In this document: piece after piece, positions 2,698 to 38,133 of the stretch
Numbering within the stretch: position 1 is the stretch's first letter
Layout: every line of letters begins with the position of its first letter
Assembly (NCBI GenBank): GCA_000934665.2
Contig: JYFJ02003758.1
Coordinates: forward strand, 1 to 38,133
Direction: 5' to 3'
DNA length: 38,133 nucleotides
Origin: Catajapyx aquilonaris
Lineage: Eukaryota
The notes under the pieces: generated by a model
Seen by the model: the letters and a program-made list of their open reading frames with translations, nothing else
Databases searched by the model: none
What the model was told of the DNA's origin: nothing
Made by a program: the position numbers and the translations under genes

Positions 2698-4967
2698 TTA
2701 GTGAGTTCCTTGCACAAATCCCAGTTGGAGAGCATCATTTGGGACAAGACGCTCTGCCTGCAATGGAGAGTTCACTGTCATTATCTCTTGTGCATATTAT
2801 GTTACTCAATGAAAGACGTATGAAAACAAGAGAGGTCACTTACCGGATCCATTTTCAAGCAGCCAAACAAGAACTCAGCAAATGCCTCGTCAGTGAGATC
2901 AGATTGCTTGCAGATCTTGACTTGGTAGAGGATGTCGTTGATGTCCCAAGCAGCTGCAATATGTGTCTGAAAATGAAAAAAAAATTCATTTGCCATAATG
3001 CTAATTTCCCCATGACATATCGTCTCAGGAGCATAAAAATATTCTTCATACAAGTGAAGAAATTCATCATAAAAGATTTGCAAGAGTATGGTGAAACAAT
3101 GAATCAAATTGTGTGATATGTATATTAAAATGAAATGTCACTCAAATATAAGTGGCAGCCAGTCTTAATTTTCAAAAATAGGGTCTATTCCCCTAATTTT
3201 ACATATGTTTTACCACACATTTAAAAAACTAACACTGGACAACAACTTTCAACTGTCATGTGTGAACATGGTTTCTTATGCAGGCGTATTACACTGCTCG
3301 TTATTCCTCATAATTACCAGATGAGCTAGAGAAATTTTTTTGTGCAAATATTATCAACATTACAGAATTCAAATATACTGGTATGTACGGCTATAGATGC
3401 AAAAAAAAAAAGTAATTTACATTGGTTGACCAGATTAATAAAAAAAAGTATTGGATTTATAAAGTTGAAGTAGGATAAATATGCAAAAACAGATATGAAA
3501 ACTCACCTTAATTTCATAGGACCCAGTGGAATGCTTATTGTAGTACTTGGCAGTGTGCTTGCCACCATCAAGAACTGCATTTGGGATGTCCCCTAACAGC
3601 TTTGTCCACACCTGAAGAGTCAGCAGCCGCTCATGGGCTTTGAAAAGTTGACATCCAAGACCAAAGTACATTGAGCCGCATATGGTCCCCACACCCCACA
3701 TGTCTATTGCCTCATCAAAAGGGGCCCCTGTAAAAAAGAACATGTTAATAGACGAAAACTTATGGAATATGAAGAGTCATATCTAGAAACACGCTGTCAG
3801 TACATGAAAGGTCTGGAATTAGGATGCAATGAGCTCTAGTCCCAGACTTGCATCATAAATTAAATTAAGAGCATCATATTCACATATTCAGGAACACGTT
3901 ACTATTAATAGGTGAAAAAAACCAACTATGACTGGCAGAGCAGTAACAATAAAATCTAAGACAGATTGAAAGTCAATCCAATGGCCTATGCTGGTGAACG
4001 ACTGATAAAGTGCATCCTGCGTGCACAAGAAGTGAGTACACTCTCTCACACACAACTTACCAACAAAAATCTCCGGGGCACGATGGGGAACTGGTTGGAT
4101 ATCACGACCCTGGTACTGAGCGGCATCTGTTGTAAAGAAGGTCCACCCAAAATCTGCCAACTTGATCCTCCATGTCTCTCTGCTGGGATCCACAAGGATA
4201 TTATCCAACTTGAGGTCTGCATGAATCAAACGTCGGTCCTGAGAAATTAAAAAAAAAAAAAACATTCTTTAGAAACATTATTGTGTGGTGTGTTCAGCTG
4301 TAAACTGGGCCAACTAATGGAATTCTCATCTAGCACTCATATTATGTTATCTGGCTTTTTATGACTTCATTATTGCTTTTCACAAATGGTACTATGGAAT
4401 AGTATACTGACACTAATCATTATTAGCATTTGAGATTCATTAAAGAGGTGGACTTACCTTCAAGTGGCTAAGTGCAACAAGGATCTGCTTGGCAATGTTG
4501 GATGTCTGGGCACGTGAGAACCGCCTGAAAGGCTGGCTGTTGAGATGCTTGTCAAGATCCGTTGGCATTGATTCCAGAAGAATGCAGTAGAGCCCTCGAT
4601 GGATGAAAGTGTCAATGAGCTTGATGATGTTGTGTTTTTCAGCAAGATCTTCAGTTTCTTCTTCACTTGAATCAGCAGAACCTTGCCCTTCTGAGGTGGA
4701 ACCCAAGGTGGGACCATTCACCAGATGCTCTATCACACTGGCAGATGTTTGCAAATAATCCAGGGTGTAACTCTCCTTCATGACTCGGTCTAAATCAGCT
4801 TGCACTTTCACGACGGCCTTCGTGCGCATGTCCACCGACCCATTAGCATATCTAATGCAGCGGTAGGCAACCCCAAACCTTCCTTTTCCCAGCTCTCCCC
4901 GCACGACATACATTTCTCCTTGCACGGTTCGGACAACATCTCCAACTGAGAGTTCACAGCTTGGACT
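2698..4967 (-). CDS. K1: HIPK-like (CMGC/DYRK group) Ser/Thr kinase, kinase-domain-only
   Basis: Exons 4967-4458, 4238-4061, 3727-3507, 2966-2844, 2757-2698; all GT-AG and joined in frame to TAA. Motifs GKGRFG, AVVK, HADLKLDN, DFG, RAPE, GAPFDEAIDMWGVG, MDP..R. Start uncertain; an in-exon ATG at 4913 keeps the whole domain. Confidence 0.9.
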
Positions 4968-7629
4968 CTGAAAGTGAAAATGACACTATATTAGACGACA
5001 AATTAAATTGCTCCACTAGATCCCTTAGCATATTAATTTCTCTAATTATCGAGAAAACAGGTGATTGATGAGGCCTACACGCTCATTATTACCAAATAAT
5101 ACAGGCGAGGTGGCATTTGACTTTACCTTTTATACACCCATTTTGAAAATTGCAGTTCAAAATGAATCTTAGCAAATTGGAATGGTATCCACTCTAACTA
5201 TAATCATGATTGTTCAATTCAGCGCTCACTGTCACCTCTTGTATGAACTTTTGACAATCGGCATCTGCTCATCTGCTTTGGGCAATATGCCTACAGGTGG
5301 GGTTATCATTGCCATGTGCCACCTCCACAAATGAAACACATTATGATCACTTTTTCCATCACCTCCAGAGCCATAGTTATTATGATTCTATTGTACCTAT
5401 AGTATTAATAATATTTAAACCATTCTTAGTATTGCCCAATTAAAATAATAATTGCATTATTATGAACAGGAACACATTAATTTTGAAAGAAATTACTGAA
5501 TGTGTGTCAACAAGCTTGTTTGAATGAGAGTTTTGGAGCAAATTGAAGCCTTTTTAGAGTGAGCAAAAAGTCAATGTACAAAGGAGATTCAATAATATTG
5601 GCTTCTCACTTTCATTCTTTCACTATGACTCATTATTCTCAGTACTTGGGAACACACTTGTTTGTTAATTTCAGTACCTTACTATTTTTCCACAGAACTA
5701 AAATATCCATATTTTCCAGCTATGAGCCCGTTCCAACACCAGTTAGTCAGTAGAAAGCACCACCATTAATTCCAGAACTCTCTCTTTTGCTCTAATTGAT
5801 AAGTTGTAATTTTGCAAACAATTATTATAAAAATTGTAAATTACAATTGAAAATACACCATTAACAAAACTGCAAAAAAAAAGGCAACTACATAAACTTT
5901 ATGAGCTGGCACACAATTACCATACTGAAAATGTGTTCACATTTGCCAGCCAATAATGTCAAGCCTGGTTTGCTTCCCAACCAAGTAGCTGCTGACTTTT
6001 ATCATTAGAGAATGTAGTACGTAACACTCAAATAGTGTATTATTAAATGTGGCCTTCTAGATATTTTCTGCTACCATTACCTCAAACAGCTTTGCGGAAC
6101 TCTTAGGATAGGCCTGCAGAACTACAATGAATGGGAGTGAATGTCATGAAACAATTTTACCTACTTGGAATATTTTTTTTAAATAGTGGAGCGAAATGCT
6201 TAAGACATAAATTAAAACCGATAAAAATTTTTATGCAGAAAGCCACCTGGACTACCAGTTGATCAAATTAATTTCATTGCTCCTGAAAACAAAAGAAAAA
6301 TCCTTGCTTCCCTCCTCATTTCCAATAGTCATTTTTTCTATGGAATGAGAAATATTATGTTTGCTAATCATTTACTCAGACCCTAAATTGTGATGAATTT
6401 CCAACCTGAAAACCATTTTTACCTATTATTACCTGAAGTAAATAGTTTGACATTTTTAAAAGGCCTGCTTCAAAAAAGTGTATAATTTTTTTTACCCAAT
6501 ATAAGCAACTAATATTTCGAAATAACACCGAAAAGTCACCATTAAAATAGCAGCTTATCAATTTGGCAAAAAAAAAAATCTGATCCGCCTGTTTTTACAC
6601 GAATTATTTCGATGCAGGCTGTAGCACATGATCAAAACGCTTATTCTGGCCACCAATATCTCAAGTACACATTACAGCCGTAAATAAGCCAAATATATAT
6701 ATATTTTTAAAAAAACGATGTTCATTTTTGACAGAAAGATAGTAAAATTAAAATATGGACATCCATTTTGGCTTCTTTTTTTTTCGCTCCCTAGAAACCT
6801 GATTATGATCATCGTAACAGCCATTAAATTGGATCCCAAACCATCACAATTCTGGTTCTGATAATGCGCCCACGACGAACTAACAGGCCTGTACGAAAAT
6901 AATACGCGAAAAAGTGCAAGAATTTCTTGCAACCAGTGAAACAACGACCTCGTAATTGCACCCAAAAATATAAACTTGGCGACGTAAGTGTTCCCTATTC
7001 CAGATTACTCGATCCTGATTGAGTAACTTGGACCCAGCCTACATCTGAAGTCCCGATTAATTACCTGTTGAGCAACCGCCTTTGGCATATCCAGATGTCC
7101 ACTCGGGATGCGCAGTCTTGATGAAGAGTGGACAGTACCAGACATGATGATGGCTGCTTTGTTGACTCGGTAAAAGAAATATATAATGCTATCTTGACCA
7201 GTACAATAGAGGTGGTGATGAATAATGCGTGGATGAGAGGGAAACTGGTTGGGTCTGACCAACTCTCCTCCAGTAATAGCAGGTATGCTTCAAGACAATG
7301 AGTAAGCTGTGGTACTGGAAGGTGGGAGGGATTTTAGGGGACAGCAGGGGGTGGGATTGGCGTCCAAAAACCGGGTTGAGGATTTTTCTGCACCAGGCAC
7401 CAAAATATTGGTAATCCCCATGACCTTTTCCTGGAGGGTTTTCGAAGCGTCATCCTGGGAGGAGGCATGCCACTGCTGTGGTGCCAAAGATATCATCACA
7501 TGTTGCTCTTTAATTATGCGCCACTCATTGCCTTTTCCGAATTGTAGTTTTATTAACTGTTGGTGGAGCTGAGGAAACTATATTAAGGTTTGGAAATACG
7601 GAAAATGTAGGCCTTTTTTTTTTTTACAG

Positions 7630-7700
7630 TGGACGACCCCAGAGAAAACCCGCTCGAATACACAGAGAGAGCCAATTGAAGTTCAACCCAGAGCCCACAT
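7630..7700 (-). repeat. Possible degenerate SINE fragment
   Basis: CCAGAGAAAACCC..GAGAGCCAATTGAAGTTCAACCCA..CCCACAT resembles, from memory only, the reverse strand of invertebrate tRNA-SINE core regions. No A/B boxes or TSD seen. Confidence 0.25.
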
Positions 7701-9620: not shown

Positions 9621-11072
9621 TCATTTTCTCACAAAGTCCATCAGCAAAGCTTCCTGTGGCACAATGCGACCTGACTGTATAAAAAGCAAGGTTAATATCA
9701 GTAACTTGAGACTGTTAAAAGTGTTGATACTCTCATTAAACTCACAGGGTCCATGTGCAAACACCTCGACAAAAAGGTAGATAATGATTGATTCCTTATG
9801 TCAAAACAGCTATGAATTCCACACTTGTCTTGAATCTCATGTGCTGCTTTAGCTACACCAGACCCTTTCTGCAGATGTAAAATGTTGCATTGTATCGCAT
9901 TCAAAGCAGTGTCAAGTGTAGCTATGTCTGCAGCCAAACCTTACCTTGAGCTTATACCGTCGGTCAGCAGTTAATGTAAAGAAGCTGCAGGTGTATAAGC
10001 CATCGTTAAGCACCCTCCTTGGGATGTTCCCAAAAAGGCGGATCCTGAGATGCATTATAATAAGAGGATCGGGCGGCATAAACATTTTCCATTGCACCCC
10101 AAATATCATTGTTGCACACAGGCAACCCAGTGACCAGATATCAATGGCTTCAGTCACAGTAGCACCTGACAAATACAAGGGGCATATTTATTTCCAGGCA
10201 ATATTCAGACGTTATTTCACCAAATTAGTATAATGCCAAGTAACATACCGAGGTAAACTTCCGGTGCCCTGTTTGGGACAGACTGAATGAGAGCACCTTT
10301 GAAATTGGCGGCATCTTTCTTGTAGAAGGACAGCCCAAAATCTGCCAGTTTGGTCTTCCACTTTGAACCGCATGGGTCTACCAGTACATTATGCAGCTTA
10401 ATATCTGCGTGAATAATACCTTGCACCTGTCAAAATTCAATGAATACTGATTACTTGTCTAATTGGTTGTAAAAGATGGACCAATTCCACCAAATTTTAG
10501 CAGCTAATACTTTACACAACCAGTAAATGACTGCTTAAAAATTTGCAGCTCATAGTGACCAAAAAATCAATATGTGCTACTTGACAATTCAGGTGGAAAT
10601 GAATCAATTGTTAATATTTTCCACTCAGCCTGCTTACCTTCAACCAATCTAATGCAATCAGCAACTGCCATGCCACAGTTGACGTCTGACCAAATGTTAA
10701 GCGTTGCCGGGGCTGCTTCTGAATAATCTTCCATAAATCAGTAGGCATCAGCTCAAGAACCATTAAATGTGTGTTCATAAGTTGAAAATGGTGCAGCATT
10801 TTAATAATATTCTTGTTGTCTTTTGACTCCTCATCCCCGTCTGCACACTGACTTCCCCCGCAATCACGTAGCGTTTGCATTATTTCCACCTCTCGTAGAT
10901 GACAAAGTTCCTGAACCTTGATTGCCACAAACCGTGACTGACCCTCACTGGATTCATTCAACCAGGCACATCTGTGCACTTCTCCGTACTTTCCTCTTCC
11001 GAGTAATTCCACAGCCAAAAACTCAGACCCATTAGGAGCACGTATAAAGTCAAGTTGAAGCAGCTGTGGTTG
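9621..11072 (-). CDS. K2: HIPK-like Ser/Thr kinase, kinase-domain-only; start codon unresolved
   Basis: Exons 11072 (or 11063)-10638, 10426-10249, 10165-9945, 9868-9746, 9674-9621, in frame to TGA. Motifs GRGKYG, VAIK, HADIKLHN, DFG, RAPE, EAIDIWSLGC. There is no Met before the Gly loop in the large exon, so an upstream coding exon is required. Confidence 0.85.
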
Positions 11073-12928: not shown

Positions 12929-13158
12929 CAAGGGGGTAGTCACTTCGGAGAGCCGGTGTACACCCTCACTGGTGAGCTGCGGAGAGCCGAGGGAAAACCA
13001 CGTCATATCATCAACCCCGCAGGATGTGACGTAGTTGGCTCTCCGAAGCTCTCTGCGGCATCAGTGAGCCCATAAGACCGTGGGTGAGCCTGCTGGTGAG
13101 CCAGAGGAGAGCCACGGAGAGCCACTGTACACTTTTTTGAGGAGTGACTACCCCCTTG
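12929..13158. mobile_element. 230-bp non-autonomous TIR element, possibly hAT-like
   Basis: TIRs CAAGGGGGTAGTCACTTC / GGAGTGACTACCCCCTTG (17/18 match), internal GGAGAGCC motifs in both orientations, flanks GCACTGCA / GCACTTAT (5/8 identical, possible decayed 8-bp TSD). Confidence 0.65.
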
Positions 13159-15176: not shown

Positions 15177-17506
15177 ATGTTGCTGGAAGATTCTGCTGGA
15201 GGAGAGATGGTCACTGCTGCCAAGAGGCCCAGGTTGCCCCCACCTGACAAACAGGTACACACTACTCGCGGTATTTTTTTATTTGCAGGTCCCTTTACTT
15301 TGATTACGATCCAAGATGTGGGTTTGAGCTTTTCACGCGTTTGCAAGGTCATTTTTTTGATCTGTATCCAGAAGCAGATACAACATGGGATAACGTCCTT
15401 AGTGACAGAGCCACACAGATCAGGTCATCTGGGTCATCTGCAGTAGTTAGTCTGTCCAAAACATACTTTGTAAGAAGTCAGAGTCAGAGCCTGATTGACA
15501 GGATTTGTCATGTAGCAGGCTGGAAGATAAGGACCACCTGGGGACATGGTACCAAGTACCAGGTGGTTTGGTGGTGGGGAAAAGTGGCTGGTGTCAGCTA
15601 ATCTTATCTGCCTTGGGTTGGCCTTGAGAGCTTGGCTTTGCTTTTGGTGGGAATTAGTGAAAAATCCAACTCGCTCATTTTTGGCACTTTTCTTTAAAAA
15701 AAAAAATGTAAGAACTGTCTTTACTACAAGCTAGTAGGAGCATGTCATGCTATTCCATTATATAACTTTTTCCTCGTATTTCAGGACCATTCATTGCAGA
15801 CCTTTGACATCATCCATCTGTCAAAAGGAGTTGAATATATTGTTGGAGACAGGCTTGGCAAGGGTGGTTTTGGGGAAGTTCTCATGTGCATGAAGGCAGA
15901 CTCCAACTCGGGAAAAGTCAGTCGACATCCAGATGCCATAGCTTTGAAGGTCCAGAGGAAGTCAAGTTCATGGAAGCAAGAGGTATCCATCATGAAGAGG
16001 CTGAAGAAGGGAGGGAGTGGCACGAAGATCCCAAGATTTGCCTGCATGAAAGCAACAGGGGCCGTGGAAGATGATGAGGATGAACATGGAATTGTGAAGA
16101 TGATCGATTACTTCACCGTCCGAGGTCTCCACTGCATTGCCCTTGAGATCATGCCGATGAATCTTTGGATTCTGCTCCAGAAGCAGGACCTGTGCTGTTT
16201 CACCACATCGCAAATCTCTACTGTGGCTAGGCAGTTGCTGATTTCTTTGGATTGGCTGAAGGCTAGTTTGCTTAATTAATTAAACCGATCAGAAGTTCCT
16301 TCTTGTTTTCTGATTTACCAGTGCATTTTCAATGCAAGTGGAACCTGCAGCCTAAATTGTTTGCAATTAAAGTTAAGCAGGTGCAATATTGTCGCCTATG
16401 TTGTACGAGTCTCGCATGTTTGTTTTGAGTTAATTATGCATGTGCGTCAGGAACAGGGTATGTAATGTAATGGTTGAAGAATGCCATATTCAGTAGTTTT
16501 AATGATTAATCTACTTCACAGGAACGGGGTGTGATTCATGCAGATCTGAAGGTGGATAATGTGCTGGTGGATCCACGGACCTGGACTGTCAAGTTGGCTG
16601 ATTTTGGCATGTCCTTTCCCAAGAAATTGGCAGGAAGTCTGCATGGACATTGGTTTCAAACACCTCCATACAGAGCTCCAGAGGTGTATGTTGGTAAGTT
16701 AACTGGTTCAAATTAAGTTCCAGCAAGTGGCTGACCTTTTTCTTTTTCTTCTTCCTCTAGGATTGCCAGTTTCGGAAGCCATTGATGTCTGGTCACTTGG
16801 ATGCATGTGTGCGACCATGTACTTTGGTGTGTGTTGCCCCATGTTTTCACCCCTTGAACGACTCGATGATCTCCTCACTTTGCATCTCATGGTCAACCTC
16901 CTCGGGGAGATGCCCAAAATGAGGTTGCATGAAGGATTGTTCACCCTGAACTACTTTGATTTTGACAGCAAGACCAGGCAGTACGAGCTCAAGGTAAGCT
17001 TGCAAAATACACTCGGATAATTTCAGATTGACGTCACCATTGTTAACATGAATGCATTCGGAAATGCCAGTCTGTAATGTCAACCGTGATTGTTGAAGGG
17101 TTGGGCTGTAATATGAATTCTTTAACCTCTTTAGCAAATTTTGTACAGCGTTGTGAGAGTAGTCAACACAAATAGGACACAATGTCATTTCCTTTGGTTC
17201 TTTGAACAATGTTTTTGACTTACCTGGGTTATTGTTGTCATCCTCAGGAGAAGTCTATCGTTGGCCGGCAAGCAAGGGCAATGCTGGTAGATGGTGGGAT
17301 CTGTGATTTTGGAGAGGTCATGGAGCCTGACTTTGCTGAATTTATGTGGCAGTGCCTTGACATGAACCCGGTAAGAAATGATAATTTGTTGACAAGAGAT
17401 CCCATTAATGACCAGGCTTTGTTTTTTTTTTAAATTTTAGGACACACGTGTTGTACCAAAGGATGCACTGGAGCTGTCCTTTGTGAAGAATATCACATTC
17501 TTATAA
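15177..17506 (+). CDS. K3: HIPK-like Ser/Thr kinase with a non-canonical donor after the large exon
   Basis: Candidate first exon 15177-15254 (MLLEDSAGGEMVTAAKRPRLPPPDKQ; less certain), then 15785-16261, 16522-16693, 16761-16993, 17248-17370, 17441-17506. Motifs GKGGFG, IALK, HADLKVDN, DFG, YRAPE, GLPVSEAIDVWSLGC (close to HIPK GLPFCEAIDMWSLGC). The donor at 16261/16262 reads AAG|GCTAGT. Confidence 0.85.
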
Positions 17507-18270: not shown

Positions 18271-18276
18271 AATAAA
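18271..18276 (+). promoter_or_regulatory. Candidate polyadenylation signal of K3
   Basis: AATAAA about 765 nt after the stop, followed by GT/T-rich sequence. Confidence 0.35.
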
Positions 18277-19312: not shown

Positions 19313-19700
19313 TGTTATGTTGGTAGCATTTGTAATTGTTTCTGTTTCTATTGTTGCAGTTGCCAGGAGAAGAAAACTATTTTGCTATTGGCAGTTGATG
19401 AGTGTAAGCCGTTAGGTGATCTGACACAGTGGTATGTATCTAAGCTTCATTTCCTTGCAAGTTATGTATGAGGAGTTATTTGAGCGTGTCTGCTTCTCTG
19501 TTCAGTATGGGATGTCAAATTTTGCGATAAAATAATGGCTAAGTAGCAAATGACCACAATCGATCTGTTTATTTCATCTGCTATCATCTGGATAATTACT
19601 TCTGAGCAATAATTTAGTTTCACAGAGATGAAGCACATGAGCAGGGAAGAAGTCAAGCGAAGGCTTGCAGATATACAATGTTGGCATATACATAATGCAA
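19313..19700 (+). repeat. Copy 1 of a diverged ~380-bp direct duplication (copy 2 at 22334-22700)
   Basis: Colinear shared blocks TGTTATGTTGGyAGCATTTGTAATTGTT, ATTGTTGCAGTTGCCAGGAGAAGA, GATAAAATAATGGCTAAGTAG, CCACAATCGATCT, CATAATGCAA. Confidence 0.85.
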
Positions 19701-20431
19701 CTGAAAATGAGTTGAATGTTATTGTAGGTCCGAGTCTGTATGCCTTTGAACCCCCCCTTCGCTGTGAAGTTGTGTTAGTTTGATGCAATGTTAGCCATAA
19801 TCAGTCCCCTGGGTTATTTCCACATCACAATCTGCCATGCACATTATGACTCCTTCTCTGCATGGCATACACAGCACATATGTCCTTTGACTGTGTTTGA
19901 AAGTTACTCAAAATAACCTTGAGTTGTTGGTTCATTGGGTGTTAATAATGTGGACCCTATGCTTTTTGGCTGACTCACCAGCTTAATCATGAAGCAATGT
20001 AGGATCAAGAAATGGGGAGAGATCAAATTGAATAGTGGGGGTCTTGGTAGATTTATCCCAAGTTAAATTTTGTGGATACTCGATGTATATTTTACTAACT
20101 GGAGAGTATTGATTTTTGTACATTTAAATCGGAAAAGTTGCGCACAATTTTGCGCACAAGAATAATTTATGTGGAATACTTTTATGCCGCTATCCTCCAC
20201 TGGTTTCCTCCAGCCGTACCAGACCAGCAACCTACTAGTGGACCAGGTTCCAGGTTGGAATAGGTTCCTTTTTCTGGATGCTGCGTAAATGACCACACTC
20301 ATTAGAATTTTTTGTCAGTATGTCACTCATTTTTCCACAGTGTAATGTGGCAACATGGCGAAAAGTAGTACCATTGGACATGAGTCCTTCTCAGACCAGA
20401 TAATTATGGTCGTCTCTTATTCCACAATGAA

Positions 20432-21190
20432 TAGATCAAAAACTTTCCCTTCAGTAAAAAAAAGAGAAGTAAGACCTTCGCGGCGGAATGAAAGTACTGA
20501 AACAAGGCAGGCGCACGTAAGACCTTCACCAATTGATTTAAGCTGTACCATAGGTCTTACTCAAGCAATTCCCAATTCACTGCTCATGAAGTCTCCTTTC
20601 TGAAACAAATTTGTGGAATTTCCGTCCTACTACTAATTACTTCTAACAGCAGTACCAGTGTGCTGCAATTGTACTGCTAAGTTAGCAGTAACTACAGACC
20701 TATAGTTAATAGTAATAGTAGTACGACGAAAATTCTGCCCATTAATTTTCCATGAGCCGCTCCATATTAGTGTTTTATGAAATTAGGAACTTCAATATTA
20801 AGCACATTGAATTTCTATGCGATTAGTGCGAATTATTGCCATGAAACATGCTGATTTTAACTCTAGCGTTTAATTTTTCACATATAAACGTTAATTGGTG
20901 AATTTTAGAGGGTCTTTTTCGATTGGACCGAGTCTGTTTGAATGGGTTTAGTTTTTCCCCAATTTTTTTCTTTTAATAATAAAATCCTACCTATACTGCT
21001 CTGAGTAGTTTGCAGCAGTCATTTTACGAGACGTTCCATACCGTACTTGAGAATTGCTTGAGTAAGACCTATGGTACAGCTTAAATCAATTGGTGAAGGT
21101 CTTACGTGCGCCTGCCTTGTTTCAGTACTTTCATTCCGCCGCGAAGGTCTTACTTCTCTTTTTTTTACTGAAGGGAAAGTTTTTGATCTA
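20432..21190. mobile_element. Non-autonomous DNA element with 140-bp perfect terminal inverted repeats
   Basis: 20432-20571 is the exact reverse complement of 21051-21190 by eye; ORFs 20355+ and 21019- share an identical peptide. GTAAGACCT occurs three times per arm. The TSD can be read as TA or AAT. Confidence 0.9.
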
Positions 21191-21383
21191 ATTTCAGTTC
21201 TTTTTTGACAGTACACGAAACTTACGTCTACACTATACAGTCTGCACTATGAATGCATTGGAGACGATTTTCGTCGCTGAGAAGTCCCTAAAATTATTTT
21301 CACAGAGATAGTCGTAAAAAAAACGAAAGTCGAGTGCTACCAGCCAACGGTTAGTCTGATTTAATTAGTCTGGCTTAATAGTA

Positions 21384-21819
21384 CAGTTGAATCCGGATAA
21401 AACAAACTTCAAGAGACTGCGGAAAAAGTATGTTATAACCGGGCCTGTTATAGCCGAATCGTCACGCAACGAAAACATAAATTTCTGCTTTCAATATGGC
21501 TGTACTATGCACTATTAGACTACATACCGATTAATGAAATCTGTCACAAATGCAATATTGGCTCACCCGAAAATAATTATGCAGGACCAAAATATCCGAA
21601 ATTTCCTTCTGCCGTTTCCTTTTCGCAAATTTTACACCTGGAAAACAATACTGTATTTTCCCACCGAGGGTCCTAGAAATTGTCTGTTATACCCGAGGTG
21701 AGGTGAAAATGAGTCTGTTATATCAGGAGTGAAATACACAGGGCCTTATGGAAGCATGCCGGGACAGCCTTTATAACCAAGTATGTTATAGCCGAGGCTG
21801 TTATATCCGGATTCAACTG
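21384..21819. mobile_element. Tc1/mariner-superfamily (pogo/Tigger-like) MITE
   Basis: ta|CAGTTGAATCCGGATA...TATCCGGATTCAACTG|ta: TA TSD, CAGT termini, repeated subterminal GTTATA[G/A/C]CCG motifs. Confidence 0.85.
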
Positions 21820-22017
21820 TAAATCTGTAATAATTACAATGCGTTCACCTTATAGCAGCGGCAGGGTATAACATTTCGCTAATAACAATATGGCTAGTTG
21901 GTAAACAAGAATTGACGTCTCTAGGTGATGGCATTATGAACAAATGAATTAATGACAGAAAACATACGAGGTGAAAAAATCACAGCTCCAATCCTGTAGC
22001 AGTGGGAACTGTGAGAT

Positions 22018-22213
22018 TTTGAACATAGATCCACACCATCCCACTGCACCTGCGGCCCTTTGATGAAGAAACCAAATTCCGAATAGTTATTGAGCAAAAA
22101 AATGAGACGTATTTTTTGATGGTTTAAAATTTTTTGCGGCGTTTTGAAGAGGAATTAAGTAAAAGTGTAAATGGTAGGAAATCAAGTCACGACGGTGGGG
22201 ATCTGTGTTCAAA
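22018..22213. repeat. Short imperfect inverted repeat, probably a repeat-element fragment
   Basis: TTTGAACATAGATCCACACCATC (22018-22040) vs GACGGTGGGGATCTGTGTTCAAA (22191-22213). The nearby TAGGGCGAATAAA motif recurs near 24822. Confidence 0.5.
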
Positions 22214-22333
22214 TTTTGGAAGCTCTACCTATAGCAGAACTTGAGTTAGGGCGAATAAAAAAAACGTAACAACAACAAGAAGAACAAGTAGGAAAAATTC
22301 ATTGTTGAAACATTGTTGAAATCTATGCTACGT

Positions 22334-22700
22334 GTTATGTTGGCAGCATTTGTAATTGTTAGTCTTTTTATTGTTGCAGTTGCCAGGAGAAGAGAGCTGT
22401 TTGGCTATTTGCAGACGTGACTTTTTTGAGCTGTTTGGTGATCTAGTGCTGTGGTAGGATATCTGCTTCATTTGTTTACAAGTTGTTATTTGGGCATGTC
22501 TGCTTCTCTGGTCAGTGTGGGATGTTGAATTTTGGGATAAAATAATGGCTAAGTAGAAAATGGCCACAATCGATCTTTATTTCATCTGCTTTACCCCCTG
22601 GTTCATTACCTTCTGAGCTATAATTATGTTTCACAGGGGAGAAGCATGCGGGCAAGGAAGAAGTCATTGCAGACATGCAATATTGATGTACATAATGCAA
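22334..22700 (+). repeat. Copy 2 of the diverged ~380-bp direct duplication
   Basis: Colinear with 19313-19700. Confidence 0.85.
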
Positions 22701-23081
22701 ATGCAGATTAATCGAATGGTGCAGGCATTGGTTTATGTTATGGGACAATGTAACGTGTAATGTTTTTAAAATGGCAGTAACCAAGAGCTCTTGCAGTAAC
22801 TTATTCAGACCTTGCCTTTTCTCATCATGTGGAGGGGATGGACCTATCAACAAAAAAGTACTTAAACTGTGCATGAGGTGAGGGAATAGACAATCATTTG
22901 TAGGTGTGCTCCCAATTAAGAAGGAAAAATCTGGTTTTGTTGGATCATGCACTGTGAATACTTGCAGTATGTTTGTCATCTGACATTTCCTTTTATACCA
23001 TGTAGTTCCCCTGCGATATTCCAAGCAGAACTTCTGCTTGTTGTGTTGTGAGCGATTATGGCTTCATTACATAGATTATCT

Positions 23082-23446
23082 AGGGAGGCATGGTGGTCTA
23101 GTGGTTACGCCGCTGGCCAGCCAAGCGGGAGGCCGGGGTTCAAATCCCGTCCCCGTCACCTCTGCTTGGCCGGGTCTTTTTCCGCTTTTCACCCGACATG
23201 CCGGAGCAGAATTGCACTCCCTTCTCTGCTCGGGGCCAGGAGAAAAGGTCTGGTGTTTAAGAGGGTCTGCAATGACTAGAAACTACATGAGAGCGCCCTC
23301 CCTTGGGAAGCTACCCTTCCCCATACGCCCGTGGACCAGGGCGTTGCGACGAAAAAAAAACTGTATGTAAAAAATTGCAAAATAAATAAAGGTCCGTGCA
23401 ATACCTCGAATGAGGTCCGCACTACCCAATTATTATTATTATTATT
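23082..23446 (+). mobile_element. Full-length tRNA-derived SINE with (ATT)n tail and 16-bp TSD
   Basis: Pol III A box TGGTCTAGTGG and B box GGTTCAAATCC in a tRNA-like head with GCC at the anticodon position; 3' (ATT)n tail; perfect TSD ATTACATAGATTATCT at 23066-23081 and 23447-23462. Confidence 0.9.
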
Positions 23447-23847
23447 ATTACATAGATTATCTTGCCAGTTTTTGTCTTGTCTCACACTTGAGTAACAGGG
23501 GTCATCCTCCCGGTTATTCCATATGCAGTCACCTTTGCTGAATTGGCTTGTTGGTTATTTTCTATCAGTCTTGTTTTAATATAACACAATTATTCATGTT
23601 ATCGCTAACTTTATTAAATGATTTTCCTCACAGAATTGAAATCGGCCACATCAAGTTGAGCAATTTCTTTTTGGAATATCGCAGGGACCATTTGCCCGAG
23701 AAGTGTTCACATGTTAACCCTGTGTTAACAGCACAAACAATTATTTTGTCTGATGTGTCTTTGGCAGGTTGGAGACTCAAACGTTGAAGCTACAGGGACA
23801 ATCAAAAGGCATCAAGCCAACTCGAGCAAGGACTGTTGTCAGCTAAG

Positions 23848-26137
23848 ATGTCATCAAATCCCATGGTAGTATTTGCGCTAATTTTTATGATTATGTTACA
23901 CAGTAGAGTGTAGACTAATAAAATGTCACATGTTTCTCTACAGTTCTTCAGATTGGTGACTGGACAAGTCATCCATAGCAATGGTGGAATCGCTTATAGA
24001 TTGCAGGAACGGCTGCGGCTGGGGCCTGGACGTTTCGGGGAGCGGTTTCAATGTGTGAGGACAGATGCAGGTCAACTGGACCAGAGCATTCCTCACAAGG
24101 TGGCAGTGGTGAAGGTGCCTAAGAACAGGGTGGACTGCTACAGAGAGGCGATAGTCATGCAGCACCTGGCTGAGCCCAACAATCCATTTGATCCCAGGGA
24201 TGGAGATGGGAGGAGTGTGGAGGAGAGGCACCACATTGTCAAGCTGCTGGGCCAGTTCCAGGAAGGTGGTGTCTATGGGTTGGTGATGGAGTCGATGCCC
24301 CTAGACCTCTTGACACTCCTACACAGCCAGCCAGATCTAATGTTCCCCTTACTTGTAGTGTCCAGTGTAGTGAGGCAACTCCTAATTGCGTTAGATTGGC
24401 TGAAGGTAAAGAGCGTTGGGAAAATGTTGTTTTTATTGGTTGATGACAAGATTGCAGTGAGAAACTGTGGATTGACAATAGCCTTGGATACTTTGAACGT
24501 GTTAGCCCTAGGGGAGGATTGTGTAATAAGCCACATGGGTTTTGTTTATTTTTTTAAATAAGTGGTAAAATCTGAAAAGATCCACAATGTACTAAGATCC
24601 TTTACTCACAGGGCGCGAAAAATTAATAGGGTTTGTTAATTTTTTCTAACCTTGTCTGACCCGGTGTTACAATATGTCTCCCGAAAACACTTTCCACCCA
24701 AAGTTGTGCTTTTTTTTGTTTTTGAAAAATGGCTTTCTCATCTTGGGCTAAGTTTTTTCTGATTTGTTTTACCGCAACTTGTAGACAATTAGAAGCACTT
24801 TCAATTGGATTTCAATATTACTAGGGCGAATAAATAACTAATTCACTACTTAAATTCTGTATATAATTTATTAAGTAGGATTGTAAAATAATTCAGTAAT
24901 TAATTGCTTTATTTTCTCTCTAATTGTTATTTGTAGGAAAAGCAGTTTGTCCACACTAAGGTGACAACAGAGAATGTCCTCGCAGCCCTGACTCTGAATG
25001 GAATCAGAGTCAAACTGTCTGACTTTGGCTCGACCATCTACCTTAGCGGAGAGAGGGATGTTGCGCAAGAGATTCAGCGTGAAGAATTCAGTGCGCCTGA
25101 AATTTATCTCGGTAAGAGTGATATGACCATTGCATCAAATTTGCAGATGTTTTGTAAATAATTTGGAGGTCTAATAGGCTCAATGGCACTTATTATTTTC
25201 TCTCAGGGGCGCCATTTAATGAGTCAATTGATATCTGGTCGCTTGGAATCATGGCAGGACAATTGACATTTGGATTAGGCTGTGAGCTGTTTCCACCCAC
25301 GTGCCCATTCAACCCAATACAGGTCTGGTCGAATGTGTTCGGTGGCATTCCCAACAAGGTCCTGGAAGCTGGAGTGTTCACTCGGAAGTACTTTATTCAA
25401 AGTGCAGGTGGAGCATACGATTTGAAGGTACTTACCGAGAAATACAACCCATTTCAATTAATCAACCCAGTGCCAGTGTACCATTGGCCCAACCCGAGTC
25501 GATAATGTCGGGATAAGAATTGTTCAAGGACAGACCAGTAATGATGTTGATGGCAATGATGATGCATTTTATATACAGTACATTGAGAGTAGATTGACTT
25601 AATGTTCTTCTCTCTTTCTCTTTTAGGTTGAGCCTGGTATGGACTTCATCACACACGTCCACTTTGTTCTGAACGATCCGACTACAACTAATAGCGAATT
25701 TAGGGACTTTCTCTTACAATCCCTGCATGTTGACCCTGTAAGTCATTTGTCAGTTCAAGAGATTATGAAGTGTATGAACATAAGTAAGCCTGTTAATGAA
25801 AAATTTGCACACATTTCAAGAAGTAATTTTTGAAGCATATGCTACATACGTACAGTGATATTATTATTGTCTACTGCTGGTCTTATCCATCTTGATCAGA
25901 GATGTCATAACATTTGTTTTTGGTTCCCAGAATCAGTGTCGAAGATCACTAACCTCGATGGATGTTTCCATTGGATCAATTAACATGATGTTGCTATACA
26001 TCTCAAGGCTTCAACATATTTCCAAAGAAAACTAAAGAGGTTCTTGATGTCTCATTTTTCAGGAGAAACGCCTCACCCCAAAAGAAGGCCTGAGGATGGC
26101 ATTTGTGAAGCGATCTTTGATCTCTAATGCATCGTAG
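23848..26137 (+). CDS. K4: HIPK-like pseudokinase (catalytic loop degenerate, ORF intact)
   Basis: Candidate first coding exon 23848-23865 (MSSNPM), then 23944-24405, 24937-25111, 25207-25427, 25627-25737, 26063-26137; all GT-AG and in frame to TAG. GPGRFG, AVVK, DFG, APE and DIWSLG are present, but subdomain VIb reads FVHTKVTTENVL. Confidence 0.88.
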
Positions 26138-27299
26138 AAGATGGATCCTATTTTTGGTTTTGTTTTCAATTTATTAAGTTTTTGTATTCGGATGACAGGC
26201 CTACTTAAAAGTTACTCTCTACTGGAGTAAGAAATAAGAAGACAGACTGGTGATTGATCCAGCCTGAATCCGGCAGCAGAAGAAGGTCAGAGCTAAGCAA
26301 ATATAGTGGGATTGTATGTGTCCCATGTAACTGAGTCCAGTCAAGTGTCCCATCATGAGTCCTTCGGAAGGATGGAACTGGACCAACCTGTAGCAGATTA
26401 ACGAGGCCATCAGGAGTGATACATAGTATTACAGCTTATCTGTAACATTTAACTCCATGGAATTTGGTAGTATGTGGGTGTGTGTGTGAGCAGCACTGAG
26501 GGGAGATTTTGGACACATTGGTGAAGGCTAAGGAGTCATAGATGGGATGGTGGTGGACTGGTGCTAGTGTTGGACTGACATCAACGTAAGGCAACCAGGG
26601 CTGAGAGAAGACTTCCTTGGCCGCCTGCCCATTAACTGAAGTGGTGGTCCTGGAACGTCATCTGTGTGTCAGAAGGAAGGTGATCAGAGATGGTGTCCCT
26701 TCCTTGCTGACCAACGTGAAGGAAAAGGAATAAGGGCAGGAGGTTGTGGATGAGCCATGGATGGACTGGTGGTGTTGTCGACTTGTGATCAATAAGAAGC
26801 AGCCAGAAGTGTGAGAGATGTCTTTTTCAAACCTACCTGTTACGTCATTGGAACTTACGTGAATGGTTTATGAAACTGTTGGCTTGAATATTGAGAACTG
26901 GGAGATATTGTTTAAATGCGTGATGCAAAATTTCATGTTGTGTTGAAATGTCATTACAATTGTTGTGTTCGTGGGAAAATATAATTATGTTGAATGCTAT
27001 GACCCCTGTCGTGGTGTGCTCTATTCTGCTTGCCTTTGCAATATGGACCACGTGCTATTCTCAACAGTAATGGCTAACCACTGGGGACATTTTAATAGGT
27101 ACACCCAGTATTTATACCACATGATTTATCCCTTCTTTACAGCCACCACCTTTAAAATTATTGTTGTGGATAATATTTTTTCATGTAGAGTGTAGAGGAG
27201 ACATTTTCAGCATACCTCGACATCCTGTACACGATACATGACTTCATTATTAGTTCATGCTGTAATATGGCCATATGTCTGTACTTACATCCTACTTAA

Positions 27300-27829
27300 C
27301 CCTGGAACCGTGCCGTGGGGTCTTTTTGGACCCCAAAGGAATTAAAATGCATCGCAATGAATGATCTTGAAACGATAATGACCTGAAACTCTGTGTAAAA
27401 ACTTCCTTTCATGGATCAAATCCGGTTTCATAATTTTCACACCAACCAAAATATAGTTCAGTCGTGGTTTTTGGACCCATGCTCATGTGCCCAAGGAAAA
27501 ACAATGCATTAAAATGATAATTACAATAAACTTCTGCCATTTTTTTTACAGTATATAACAGGAAGTGCAGGTTTATTTTGAACTAGCGATCCTTTTAGGC
27601 ATTGTTCAAAGAATTATTGTATGTAGTCAATACATTGGGAAATATTACATAATAATTAATAACAATTAAAATATGGTGGGGTCCGAAATGACCCCAAGGC
27701 ACGGTTGCCGTAATACTCGCAGGCACGGCACGGTTCCAGGGTTAATAAGAATTAAAATATGTTGGGGTCCGAAAAGACCCCATGGCACGGTTAATTAACG
27801 TAACTTTTAGGCACGGCACGGTTCCAGGG
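27300..27829. mobile_element. piggyBac-like non-autonomous element with a duplicated right end
   Basis: TTAA|CCCTGGAACCGTGCCGTG at left; CACGGCACGGTTCCAGGG|TTAA twice at right (ending 27741 and 27829); subterminal GGGGTC-N6-GACCCC palindromes. Confidence 0.88.
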
Positions 27830-30085: not shown

Positions 30086-32451
30086 TCAGACCTGCTGTCC
30101 AGATTTGACCGATTGCTTGATAAATGGCAACTCCAGGCCGTCCTTCGGAGTCAGGCGCTTCTCCTGTGAAAGATATAAAATATATAGTGAGCCTTAATAT
30201 AGGTATTGCGAAGAGGAGGCCATTATTATTACAAAATCCAGACAGAAATAGTTTGAATATCACATCAACATTAAAATACGGTAATGTAAATAACAGCCTG
30301 TTAATATTAATCAGCAGAATGATTCAAGCCTTTCATGACCTAACTGAAAAGGAAGAAAATGTTTTAAAAATAATTACTTACTGGATCAACAGACAGGCAG
30401 CCGAAGAAGAACTTTTCAAATTCGGGGTCTGGGATGGTAGATGGATGACCTGGCCCGCTCTGAACGGCACGGGCACGGATGCGGAATGTTGAAGGCTCCA
30501 ACTACGAATGAGAAAGAAAAGGAAAATATTAAGAAAATGAATAAGTCCCAGTGGAATAAATGTTAACTGCGAATAAAGTGAGGTGTGGGTTTATATTGTC
30601 ACTTACTTGCAGTGTGTACTCGTCGTCACCAGTCTTGAGGTAGTACTTCTCGGTGTGTTTGCCTGCCTCGAGGACCTTGGTGGGAATGTCTCCGCACACT
30701 CTCGACCAAACCTGAAGCGTGTTGAGTGGGCTGTAGGGTGAGAAAAGCTCGCAGGCAAGGCCATACATCATCTGCCCAGATAGGATGCCAAGGGACCACA
30801 TGTCAATTGCATCGGTGAAAGGTGCACCTGATGAGGAGTAAAATAAGTGTCATTAACATCAGGCCTCATTGGTGCTTGAAATATCACTATATCGTCGGTG
30901 ATCATGCAAAACCTCGTATCTTATTCCATTGGTTTTTGCAGGAGATACGAGGTTTTGCATGATCACCGACGTTACGCTTTTTGGAAGGAAATGTACGGTA
31001 GAAATCAAATTATTGACCATGACACTAATCCTTACCAACATAAATCTCAGGAGCCCTGTGGATGGCGGGTTGAATATTCAGTCCAAAATACAGGTGAGAA
31101 TCGGGACGTATGAAGGTACATCCAAAGTCAGCCAGCTTCACTCTCACTTCATTATTTGGCCTCATGTCGATGAGGACATTCTCTGGCTTAATGTCAGCGT
31201 GAATCAACTCTTTTGTCTGAAAATAAAAGTATATCAATGAATACGGATGTGCAGAAAAGAGACTGTGGTCTACCATGACAAAATAAAATCATATCAATCA
31301 TGCCGCTAAAACCTTTATAAGCGACCTAATGCATCATGCTTACCTTGAGCCAATCAAGTGCCGTCAGGAGCTGCCTGGCCACGCTGGAGACCATCACAGG
31401 GGGCAGTCTGTGTTGGAGGTGGACGGAAAGGAGTTTCAGGAGGTCTCCCTGCATATACTCCATCATCAGGCAGAAGAGGTTGGCGTGTTGGAAGAAGCCC
31501 AGAAACTTTGAAATGTTGTGTCTGTCCTCCTCCCCATCACCTTCAGTCGATGCAGAGGGTTGGTCTGCTGTGCTCCCAGGAGACTGATGGATGGGCAGTG
31601 CCAGAAACTTCATGATGGCCCCCTCCCTAGTGGCTGACACCGGGTCTCTCTGCACCTTGACTACTGCTCTCTTGTGAGACACGCTCTCGTCCAGTTGGTC
31701 AGCATCTTTTCTCACGCACCTAAACACCTCCCCGAAGCAGCCTGCTCCCATCCGTACCTCCAAGGTGTAGTCGATTCCACCATTGCCTCGGATCACCTGT
31801 CCAGCAACCAATCCGCTTCTGAAGAGCTGCAATAAAAATTATTTACAAATTATTCTCCAAAAAATCGAGAGGGTAAACGCCACAATTGAACTGAAGTTGG
31901 CCTACCCCCCCTTTTTAATTTGACTTTTTTAAAAAAATATGAGTGAGGGTAGGCCCTATATCGACTATCACATCCCCCGTTTAATAGCTTGCAAAATCAC
32001 AGACGAAATTTTGAAATTGCATTAATTTTTCGGGCCTACTGGGTTCCAAACGAAATTAGCATGTAAATAATAATGGTTAAATACGTTGCACATGGAAATT
32101 ACGATATGTTATACCAATCGCCGAGACTTTTTAAAAAACCATTTGTTTCCTGCATAAATTACAAGCACCACGAAATATCCGCACAATCAGTTCTAACAAA
32201 ATTACAAAACGGCATGGCATGGCTCACATACGTATAGCATATACATATCGTAATATTCTGGACTGGCTGAAATGAGAATAGACAATATTCACAGCATTTA
32301 CATTATTTTGGATAAAATTAATGGTCTGCGCAATGAATTATGTATACGTACATACTCGTATGATTCTACACGTAGCCCGTAAATAAAAATATGCACAATT
32401 TCTGCCGAAAAAATGGCGACCAACCTGAGGGGCCTGCTGCTGAGACGCCAT
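30086..32451 (-). CDS. K5: HIPK-like Ser/Thr kinase, closest paralogue of K4
   Basis: Candidate first coding exon 32451-32425 (MASQQQAPQ; alternative 32687-32646 MSSSLGGGQVKSVE), then 31826-31344, 31216-31036, 30827-30607, 30501-30382, 30163-30086. Motifs GAGCFG, AVVK, IHADIKPENVL, DFG, RAPE, AIDMWSLG. Confidence 0.9.
30893..30971. repeat. Perfect 29-bp-arm hairpin inside a K5 intron
   Basis: CGTCGGTGATCATGCAAAACCTCGTATCT, 21-nt loop, AGATACGAGGTTTTGCATGATCACCGACG. Confidence 0.92.
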
Positions 32452-33531: not shown

Positions 33532-33706
33532 TGACTCAGCATGGCACTTTCAGGTTGGGGGTCAGGTTAAAACTTTTCCGACATTGGCTGAGTTGGACCC
33601 GTGCTGACGTCATATCTAATGACGCCTCTAATCACGTGCTGGGTATGACCAATGCTTGGTGACCCCAAAATCGGTTTCTGTGGCCAGCCCCTCCGCATTC
33701 CACGTG
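33532..33706. promoter_or_regulatory. Candidate promoter between divergent K5 and K6
   Basis: TGACTCA 33532, ATTGG 33583, full CRE TGACGTCA 33605, half CRE 33620, CACGTG 33633 and 33701, CCAAT 33649, in a GC-richer patch just upstream of the K6 candidate first exon. Confidence 0.5.
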
Positions 33707-33845
33707 TACCACTTGAATTGGATAGAGGAGAAGGAGTGGCTCTTGTGCTTCGTTTTTTTTTTTTTTTAAATTTTGCTTGCTGAGGTGTGTTGTATGCATG
33801 TTGTGCTGCACTGGTACCGACCTGGAATATCGGTTTCTTTTGGAG

Positions 33846-35561
33846 ATGGCCTGCAGGATTCCTGCACCACAGCAACCCGGAGTGGAGTCCGCTAAGGTTA
33901 GCAGTCATTTCCGAATGTGTAAATAAAAGTTCTGACTCACATTATCATTTGTTCCTTTTCTGAAAAAAAAAACTCAGTGACAATGTCTAGCAAAGTGAGA
34001 CGCAAGGCGGTGCTTGTGAAAATTAGACGTGTGCTTCTTGTTATTTGTATATGAGTTAGGGCGAGAGGTGAATGATGGGGGAAGATGTGAGTAATTATGC
34101 TAAGTTATTTGTAAATGTTTGCAGGACTATACCAGATTCGTTGAGTATTGCATCATATCGCGTCTGCACTCATTTTATGTAGCTAATACCGGTAATGTGG
34201 ATTTTTGGTGCAACTTTTAGGGGATGTCCACTATCAAGACTTGGAGTGGGGCTGAATATTCTGTGAAGAATGTGTTGGGAAGGGGCATGTTTGGCTATGT
34301 CTACAAACTGAGGAGGATCAACTGCAGCACGAAAGAAGATCTGGCACTTCACCCAGCAGAAGTTGCGCTCAAAGTCCAGGAGAACATTGTGTTGGACCTG
34401 TGGAAGAAGGAAGTCCAGATCATGGAGCTCCTCCAGGGAAACGTGTCTGATGGGAGACCCATCATGATGGCAGCATCGGGAGGAGGTGACCACCACAACA
34501 TCATCCGTCTGATTGAATCATACACGTACTCGACTTCTGGCATGATGGTTCTGGAGCTGATGCCAACCAACCTGTGGGACCTTATCCAGCTTCAACCTGG
34601 GAAGAAGTTCACTCCATGGCAAACATCTGTCGTCACGAGGCAACTACTGATCGCACTGGCCTGGTTGAAGGTAATGCAAACAATTAATTAATTTGCCAAT
34701 CTGATGAATTATTTTTTCGCAGGATAATGGTGTGGTCCACGCTGACCTGAAGCTGGACAATGTGTTGGTTGACCCGTCAGACAAAAAGCTGAGGGTCAAG
34801 CTTGCTGACTTCGGGGTAGCATGGCACACATCGTCTGCTTTAGAAATGCATGGACGTAACATGCAAGCTCCACCACTCAGAGCTCCTGAAGTTTATGTTG
34901 GTAAGCAAGACCCATCACTTCTCTCGAAAAGCACCTTATCCCATTCAATATGACTCATTAGCAATTATCTATTTCTTATCCGAGGTGCTGCTCTGGATGA
35001 AGCGATTGACATGTGGAGCCTGGGCTGCCTGGCCGCCACCATGTATTTCGGGGTGGACCATCCGATGTTCAGGGATTGGGAGAACCATCTTCTCATCCTG
35101 TACCTGAGGATTAACCTCTTTGGAAACATCCCTAGATGGGTCCTCAGAAGTGGGAAAAAGACGCTTCGATTTTTCGACTGGCTTGGTGGCAAGAAATTTG
35201 TGATCAAGGTATGGCTGTGGTTCCAAATCTGTCTGAATCTTGTCCTTTGTCGTCTGCACTAAAGCTCCGGTAATAAGGTTGGTCATTATGTGTCTTGCAG
35301 GGACAGGCTGACGTGGCGTTGGAAGCCAAGAAGATCCAGAAGAAGTGCGGAATAAACCGTCTGTTTGATATCCCCCACATCCTGTTTGGAAAGTTCTTGT
35401 TCAGATGCCTTGACATGGAACCGGTGAGTTATTCCTTTTATGACATTGCTAATGGTTTTTAAAACGTTAAAAGGTATCATGCCTACTTTTTCTCATTTCA
35501 GAAGACTCGTTTGGTTCCTAACGATGCCTTGCAAATGCCTTTCGTGAGAGACTTGCCATAG
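33846..35561 (+). CDS. K6: HIPK-like Ser/Thr kinase, kinase-domain-only
   Basis: Candidate first exon 33846-33896 (MACRIPAPQQPGVESAK), then 34221-34670 (also has an ATG at 34224), 34723-34900, 34985-35208 (GAG acceptor), 35301-35423, 35502-35561. Motifs GRGMFG, VALK, HADLKLDN, DFG, RAPE, EAIDMWSLGC. Confidence 0.9.
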
Positions 35562-37884: not shown

Positions 37885-38133
37885 CTATGATGCAGGATGA
37901 GCGATGAAAGGCAGCTTCAGGGCATCTTCTGGCAGCACGCGTTTCTCCTGCGGAAAGTAAAAGACCAGTCAGATCACATGCTCGTTTAGCAACTGACTGC
38001 TTGCTATACCCGGTTAAGAGTATAGGCCTACTTACAGGTTCATTTGACAGCAGCTCCAGAGGAATTCAGCAAAACTGGCATCCTTGATGTCACGAGGGTC
38101 GCGGATTGAACATTCCCTCTGCATCGCCCTCGC
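37885..38133 (-). CDS. K7 (partial): last two exons of a further HIPK-like paralogue, with an apparent 1-nt frameshift
   Basis: 38133-38036 encodes ARAMQRECSIRDPRDIKDASFAEFLWSCCQMN+CT (similar to the K3 penultimate exon); 37947-37885 encodes EKRVLPEDALKLPFIAHPAS*. Both exons are absent from the ORF track. Confidence 0.85.

Follow-up and report, generated by a model that had tools for sequence, protein, structure and literature searches.

A genome usually has only a few kinases of the DYRK/HIPK type, and these are large proteins under tight regulation. In HIPK proteins the kinase domain is followed by a long C-terminal regulatory region, and the maturation of DYRK and HIPK kinases relies on a one-off autophosphorylation of a tyrosine in the activation loop. 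An H-A-D catalytic loop and the motif [DE]-A-I-D-M-W-S-L-G are hallmarks of HIPKs, and both occur in our HIPK rows. We have analysed a stretch of 38,133 nucleotides from Catajapyx aquilonaris (contig JYFJ02003758.1 of assembly GCA_000934665.2; hereafter, the window), which contains six kinase genes and a part of a seventh (c1 to c7). The window probably carries a portion of an old array of short genes, each with its own stop, coding for bare CMGC kinase domains of the DYRK/HIPK family, most likely of the HIPK branch, the same as that of a group of teleost kinases without the activation-loop tyrosine (hereafter, the fish set).

HIPK1-3 and the invertebrate Hipk (PDB entries 7ncf, 6p5s and 7o7i) provided the best solved-structure matches for the window exons 1 and 2. 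They have in common with the window copies the CMGC fold, the H-A-D-[LI]-K loop (in five of the six copies), the [DE]-A-I-D-x-W motif after APE and the domain end ...P..R..P..[AG]L...F. However, identity amounts to only ~27–30%, the activation-loop tyrosine of HIPKs is absent from the copies, and the C-lobe of the latter is about 20 residues shorter. The gene models of the window also lack the long C-terminal region of HIPKs, all seven copies running into a stop, although splicing past this stop might occur. HIPK4, a short and testis-enriched mammalian kinase of HIPK type, resembles the window proteins in that little of the long regulatory tail is present. The row P0229, which we take to be HIPK4, is nevertheless 621 amino acids long, groups with the canonical HIPKs and belongs to the class that retains the activation-loop tyrosine, whereas the window proteins are of ~340–365 amino acids. 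DYRK/YAK1-type kinases share the family-level fold with the copies, which also keep the Gln of the activation-loop [IL]-Q, and match them about as strongly as HIPKs do over the N-lobe and exon 3; the H-C-D loop and Y-x-Y/IQSRFYR signature of the DYRK-type rows (44/44) are absent from the window copies.

Gene models and array layout

The window is eukaryotic DNA with a GC content of ~40% and a CpG observed/expected ratio of 0.53, and kinase pieces recur among its stop-to-stop open reading frames (ORFs) on both strands. Six five-exon models were assembled from the coordinates after reading the splice junctions, with lengths of 337–364 codons (stop counted) and no internal stops; tblastn and three-frame reading added a seventh, partial copy:

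c1, 4967..2698, minus strand: 363 amino acids + stop; exons 4967-4458, 4238-4061, 3727-3507, 2966-2844, 2757-2698 (stop); all splice sites AG/GT.
c2, 11072..9621, minus strand: 336 amino acids + stop; exons 11072-10638, 10426-10249, 10165-9945, 9868-9746, 9674-9621; all splice sites AG/GT.
c3, 15785..17506, plus strand: 356 amino acids + stop; exons 15785-16261, 16522-16693, 16761-16993, 17248-17370, 17441-17506; GC donor in intron 1.
c4, 23944..26137, plus strand: predicted pseudokinase, 347 amino acids + stop; exons 23944-24405, 24937-25111, 25207-25427, 25627-25737, 26063-26137.
c5, 31826..30086, minus strand: nearest paralogue of c4, 360 amino acids + stop; exons 31826-31344, 31216-31036, 30827-30607, 30501-30382, 30163-30086.
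c6, 34224..35561, plus strand: the sole copy starting with ATG, 343 amino acids + stop; exons 34224-34670, 34723-34900, 34985-35208, 35301-35423, 35502-35561.
c7, 37885..38133, minus strand: partial seventh copy; exon 4 at 38133-38036 (cut by the end of the window), intron 4, exon 5 at 37947-37885 including the stop.

In the order c1 to c6, exon 2 measures 178, 178, 172, 175, 181 and 178 nt, exon 3 221, 221, 233, 221, 221 and 224 nt, exon 4 123, 123, 123, 111, 120 and 123 nt, and exon 5, stop included, 60, 54, 66, 75, 78 and 60 nt. An earlier note on this DNA had described six whole kinase domains and one partial copy with common intron positions and exon-size ranges of 172–181, 221–233, 111–123 and 54–78 nt; this description was confirmed, the exon sizes exactly. 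All four introns occupy the same alignment columns in the six copies, following ...LK (phase 0), falling within the Gly behind APE..[VL] (phase 1), and following ...[LI]K (phase 0) and ...DP (phase 0), and their lengths range from 52 to 540 nt (52–92 nt in c6 alone). Over the 24 introns (six copies with four each), every acceptor is AG and 23 donors are GT; the only deviating donor, that of c3 intron 1 (AAG followed by GC at 16262), has no frame-keeping GT close by. A base error is possible there.

The 3' ends of the genes are uniform, with an in-frame stop 3–11 codons past the conserved Phe of subdomain XI in all seven copies, which bears out the earlier statement that the proteins terminate right after this subdomain. 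The 5' ends are less clear. In c1, c2, c3 and c5, exon 1 opens at a good phase-0 acceptor, and ATG is absent ahead of the Gly loop; in c4 the only in-frame ATG, at 23923, precedes the predicted acceptor. A scan reaching up to 3 kb upstream for a phase-0 ATG...GT exon whose donor scored at least 7 produced between zero and six unrelated candidates per copy and no common start exon. The N-termini of relatives suggest that just a few to ~20 residues are missing from the copies. The designation of these genes as complete therefore stands for the kinase domain of c1–c6, but not for the 5' ends, as only c6 has an ATG start.

Along the seven copies the strand changes four times, neighbours being on the same or on opposite strands. 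A tblastn search of the window with the six models returned, beyond c7, only chance-level matches (E values of 0.39 and 0.67).

The junction of c7 was inspected in the contigs of four DNA runs, all from one sample of one study and perhaps the very source of the record. The window record is one base short at the exon-4 donor of c7 (38036/38037). Each of the four runs has an extra base after 38036, supported by its full depth, and this base restores both a Pro codon and a phase-0 GT donor; its lack in the window may be a record error or an allele, and decides whether c7 reads through. Treatment of c7 as a frameshifted pseudogene was consequently dropped, none of the four runs showing the frameshift. 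Contigs of the same runs span the region of c4 (23458-27321) with 0–3 mismatches and no gaps. In parts of c5 and c6 the depth is higher than expected of a single copy, and further near-identical copies might account for this, although summed contig depth cannot show it.

Catalytic residues, age and selection

The Gly loop, the VAIK Lys, the alpha-C Glu, the H-A-D-[LI]-K...N loop, DFG and APE are all kept in c1, c2, c3, c5 and c6; the catalytic loop reads HADLK in c1, HADIK in c2 and HADIKPEN in c5. In c4, where this loop has become H-T-K-V-T...N, the catalytic Asp and Lys are lost, while the Gly loop, VAIK Lys, alpha-C Glu, DFG and APE are still present. As judged from these residues, c4 is predicted to be a pseudokinase, or a copy starting to decay. 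In the tree, c4 has a branch of 0.76, compared with 0.43 for its sister c5. The HIPK hallmark motifs claimed in the earlier note are largely in place: HAD[LI]K is found in five of the six copies and a motif of EAID type, [ED][AS]ID[MIV]W, in all of them.

The activation loop is where the copies depart from both HIPK and DYRK kinases. Among the domains fetched, a Tyr before the [ILM]Q of this loop is present in 45/45 HIPK and 44/44 DYRK/YAK domains, and in none of the 45 fish-set domains and none of the six copies, in which it is replaced by D, L, W, E, N and N. The C-lobe is also contracted: the DxW motif and the Arg of subdomain XI are 101–109 residues apart in the window copies, against medians of 127 in HIPK (the pattern matched 14 of the 45 domains) and 123 in the fish set (38 of 45).

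Pairwise protein identity among c1–c6 is 29–49%, in line with the strong divergence noted earlier, and reaches 48.8% between c4 and c5; in the DNA itself, similarity between copies is confined to short stretches of exons. By Nei-Gojobori counts, the proportion of synonymous differences (pS) between copies is 0.60–0.82, i.e. saturated, and that of nonsynonymous differences (pN) is 0.31–0.49. The single usable estimate of substitution rates comes from c4–c5, with a synonymous rate (dS) of 1.23, a nonsynonymous rate (dN) of 0.41 and a dN/dS of 0.33. Saturated pS combined with lower pN points to old duplications, after which ORFs, splice sites and catalytic residues were retained by selection. It also speaks against neutral evolution, which the earlier note had considered as a possible objection. 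No decayed copy was seen in the window. The old age of all duplications and the absence of decayed copies fit poorly with a rapid birth-and-death turnover in this stretch, and the birth-and-death evolution proposed before was not upheld, the c7 frameshift, too, being absent from the reads. The picture that emerges from these comparisons is that of an ancient array maintained by purifying selection, in which c4 is the one catalytically dead copy.

Family placement and competing readings

Nine of the 13 exon pieces matched Pfam Pkinase (PF00069) at E<=0.01, two of them above the curated cut-off, and Pfam shows Pkinase only. The copies belong to the eukaryotic protein kinase superfamily, c4 doing so without the catalytic Asp and Lys; their closest relatives in sequence, the best library matches being of DYRK/YAK type, HIPK and HIPK-like, assign them to the DYRK family of the CMGC group. 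Over three exon profiles, built from the six copies and run against all PDB chains, the best matches were HIPK2/3, DYRK1A/2 and PRP4. Exon 1 matched HIPK3 with 46.6, HIPK2 with 44.1 and DYRK2 with 39.9 bits; exon 2 matched HIPK2 with 49.3, HIPK3 with 46.6, CASK with 46.5 and DYRK2 with 37.1 bits; and exon 3 gave a tie between DYRK1A (38.0 bits) and HIPK2 (37.7 bits). The lead of HIPK2/3 on the first two exons is small (5–12 bits).

In an exhaustive HMMER search of 1.84 billion representative proteins, the exon-1 profile obtained 3948 matches at E<=1e-3, only one of them below 1e-30. A word-based protein search with exon 1 of c6 recovered none of 180 candidates at E<=0.001. The top ranks of the library by whole-protein score were taken by teleost ‘uncharacterized’ proteins with two to three kinase domains; we dropped these ranks as a measure of closeness, as they are sums over the two or three domains. 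With no fetched protein more than ~35% identical to any copy, the set is a subfamily without a close relative in this library.

For a comparison by domain, hidden Markov models (HMMs) were made from 45 HIPK, 44 DYRK/YAK-type and 45 fish-set domains, classed by motif from 301 fetched proteins and picked at random per class. The HMM of the Tyr-less HIPK-like set, which is mostly teleost, was the best for five of the six copies, with margins over the DYRK/YAK model of +37, +25, +13, +6 and +0.5 bits; c5 preferred DYRK/YAK by 2 bits.

The fish set comprises proteins of at least 15 species, named ‘uncharacterized’, ‘protein kinase domain-containing’ or ‘HIPK1-like’, and is marked by H-[ATSG]-D-[IL]-K-[PL]-D-N-I-M and EA[IV]DMW motifs together with the absence of the activation-loop Tyr. 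One member, P0045, scored 283 bits against HIPK3 and 169 bits against DYRK1A, a difference which indicates that the fish set is HIPK-derived. Like the window array, this family lacks the tyrosine, is multi-copy or repeated within predicted proteins, and is fast evolving; K-L-[DE]-N, as seen in the catalytic loop of the window copies, also occurs in part of its proteins. Identity between the two is only 27–34%, and a plain resemblance to HIPK is still evident in the fish proteins but not in the window copies; many of the fish entries, moreover, run on into acidic, Ser-rich tails or further domains where the window copies stop. Predicted proteins contain three (P0001), two (P0002) and three (P0005) kinase domains, and the lamprey P0011 at least four, arranged in tandem and very divergent. 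Such Tyr-less HIPK-like kinases are present in large numbers in many teleosts; one icefish cluster alone consists of 17 members at 90% identity, and two teleost proteins open with M-G-x-x-x-S, a possible myristoylation signal. In full-text searches of main articles, no account of short HIPK-like kinases in multiple copies came to light, the teleost family included. A ‘Hipk1l’ unigene features in Table 1 of a seabream transcriptome study (PMC7378800), with the top genes of higher expression in ovotestis than in testis, which offers a weak lead, and for the fish family only.

Trees were calculated from 51 reference domains, one per protein (26 of the fish set, 9 HIPK, 11 DYRK/YAK-type, 4 other and 1 lamprey), and the six copies. 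In a quick LG+C20 tree the window copies are monophyletic, with a support of 100 by the Shimodaira–Hasegawa-like approximate likelihood ratio test (SH-aLRT) and a stem of 1.07. Under LG+C20 with posterior mean site frequencies (PMSF), a constrained search uniting the window with HIPK and the fish set yielded the best tree found, 3.0 log-likelihood units above the free quick tree, with a p-value of the approximately unbiased test (p-AU) of 0.573. Its advantage over other placements is not significant, the union with the fish set alone being 0.7 units above the free quick tree (p 0.511). The union with DYRK/YAK-type kinases, 28.1 units below it (p 0.082), is disfavoured but not rejected. Runs under LG+F+G4 were restricted to -fast trees of 37 of the 57 rows, from which 14 fish-set, 2 HIPK, 2 DYRK-type, 1 other and the lamprey row had been dropped. 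Here the union with HIPK and the fish set received a p-AU of 0.425 and that with the fish set alone 0.259, neither being rejected, whereas a clade of the window copies with canonical HIPKs alone was rejected (p-AU 0.017), so that the copies are not orthologues of HIPK1-4. The grouping with HIPKs therefore failed for the canonical proteins alone, and was seen in the best mixture-model tree only when HIPK was taken together with the fish set, and not significantly. A preprint argues that HIPK and YAK1 represent one ancient lineage (10.1101/2020.01.27.920793); this agrees with our YAK-like row P0017 having HIPK2 as its best match, and shows that the distinctions between these families are shallow.

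A number of observations weigh against a derivation from the HIPK branch, or against the gene models on which it is based. The best per-domain scores in the N-lobe, 63–68 bits, belong to DYRK/YAK-type proteins, and teleost HIPK-like domains are missing from the list of the 45 best per-domain scores, which goes down to 56.3 bits. Fetched proteins share just ~26–35% identity with the copies. The canonical-HIPK HMM gave the lowest scores (85–125 bits), although it is a model made of near-identical sequences. The quick LG+C20 tree placed the window clade outside HIPK and the fish set with an SH-aLRT of 99, although the constrained search later found a better tree; the free LG+F+G4 tree paired it with two PRP4-like long branches (p-AU 0.646), and a placement with DYRK/YAK-type kinases was not rejected under this model (p-AU 0.106). 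For four copies (c1, c2, c3 and c5) no start codon was found, and the model of c3 depends on a rare GC donor. These scores and trees, together with the tie of exon 3 between DYRK1A and HIPK2 and the slight preference of c5, would be accommodated if the copies came from another branch of the DYRK family, of DYRK/YAK1 or PRP4 type, and if their HIPK-like motifs were convergent or ancestral; the HAD catalytic loop is indeed present in the PRP4-like rows too. We consider such an origin somewhat unlikely. Exons 1 and 2 match HIPK2/3 best, motifs of EAID type occur in the HIPK and fish rows of the set and not in the DYRK-type rows, and the mixture model charges the DYRK/YAK placement 28 log-likelihood units. 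The PRP4-like rows, one of which (P0039) has PRP4 as its best PDB match, are long branches of odd composition, and long-branch attraction is a likely cause of their pairing with the window clade. An origin from the HIPK branch, possibly together with the fish family, is hence the best-supported reading of the sequences, but it is not proven, and the domain has diverged to such an extent that the placement at the subfamily level is statistically undecided. The earlier proposal of a lineage-specific expansion of stripped-down HIPK derivatives holds for the local expansion, the kinase-only architecture and the DYRK/HIPK part of CMGC; the derivation from HIPK itself is unsettled, with HIPK2/3 ahead by the small margins above, exon 3 tied, the canonical-HIPK HMM lowest and the trees equivocal.

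Two further readings concern the nature of the genes. Related database proteins have two to four or more tandem kinase domains, and the copies might likewise be modules of larger transcription units with several kinase domains per protein, as predicted in fish and lamprey. Several junctions would suit such a structure: in c1–c5, exon 1 opens with a phase-0 acceptor and, in four of these five copies, has no ATG; the end of exon 4 is likewise in phase 0, a GTG codon that could serve as donor directly follows the conserved Phe of exon 5 in five of the seven copies, and the pairs c2>c1 and c3>c4 share a strand. We nevertheless find this arrangement very unlikely, given the in-frame stop at the same place in every copy and the four orientation switches, which leave c5, c6 and c7 without a same-strand neighbour downstream; the multi-domain database entries, for their part, are automatic predictions and may be fused models. 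It is more improbable still that the array consists of unexpressed relics evolving neutrally. The four copies without a visible start codon, the GC donor of c3, the lost catalytic residues of c4 and the frameshift of c7 in the window record would all be expected of relics, but that frameshift occurs in none of the four runs, and six stop-free ORFs of 337–364 codons persist despite saturated synonymous sites, with pN well below pS, along with 24/24 acceptors, 23/24 GT donors and the catalytic residues of five of the six copies. We accordingly retain the reading of separately terminated genes, probably of the HIPK branch, and regard the window set as a very divergent variant within the lineage-restricted expansions of DYRK/HIPK type.

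Genomic surroundings and possible roles

Scans of the window for tRNA genes and Rfam families gave zero matches, and Pfam detected no credible domain in 14 long intergenic ORFs. Between c3 and c4 lies an element of ~760 bp (20432-21190) with inverted repeats of 144 bp that are 99.3% alike (20432-20575 vs 21190-21047). Summed contig depth over 20135-23469 is at least 10^4, compared with ~30 elsewhere, which makes the element a very high-copy repeat, probably a DNA transposon resembling miniature inverted-repeat transposable elements (MITE-like). Direct repeats at 19313-19718 and 22333-22718, 77% alike over ~410 bp, are found on either side of the high-copy region, and a second block of high depth (26805-28138) is situated downstream of c4. 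A tandem array at 1432-1603, with a 20-bp unit, 8.7 copies and 92% matches, accounts for the repetitive ORFs there. Intron 2 of c5 harbours an 85-bp palindromic stretch (30890-30974; 80% self-complementary), where the local depth bin is 500–900.

If translated as modelled, c1, c2, c3, c5 and c6 would be active Ser/Thr kinases made up of a bare CMGC domain, whose activity would not need tyrosine autophosphorylation. Lacking both the tyrosine step and regulatory tails, these five would have to be controlled by transcription, turnover or partners. The c4 protein, if functional at all, might bind nucleotide without transferring phosphate and act as a scaffold or as a regulator of a paralogue. The strong divergence of old paralogues kept under selection may reflect different substrates or partners. 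A bolder scenario, which we deem quite unlikely, would see here an orphan, ancient and minimal CMGC subfamily that abandoned tyrosine self-activation and all regulatory tails in favour of constitutively active enzymes and a dead partner (c4 beside c5), forming, in a sparsely sampled lineage, a diversified battery for recognition and signalling, e.g., in innate defence or gamete biology, either analogous to the teleost arrays or sharing their origin.

Lineage-specific expansion of kinases as such is a common kind of finding. In this array, at least seven old paralogues lack the tyrosine and the regulatory appendages and keep the catalytic core, with one of them a predicted pseudokinase. The Tyr-less multi-copy family of teleosts, along with the multi-domain kinase of lamprey, may merit a study of its own. 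If expressed and active, the Catajapyx proteins would be natural minimal versions of the kinase fold, and could reveal what the tyrosine step and the CMGC insert provide.

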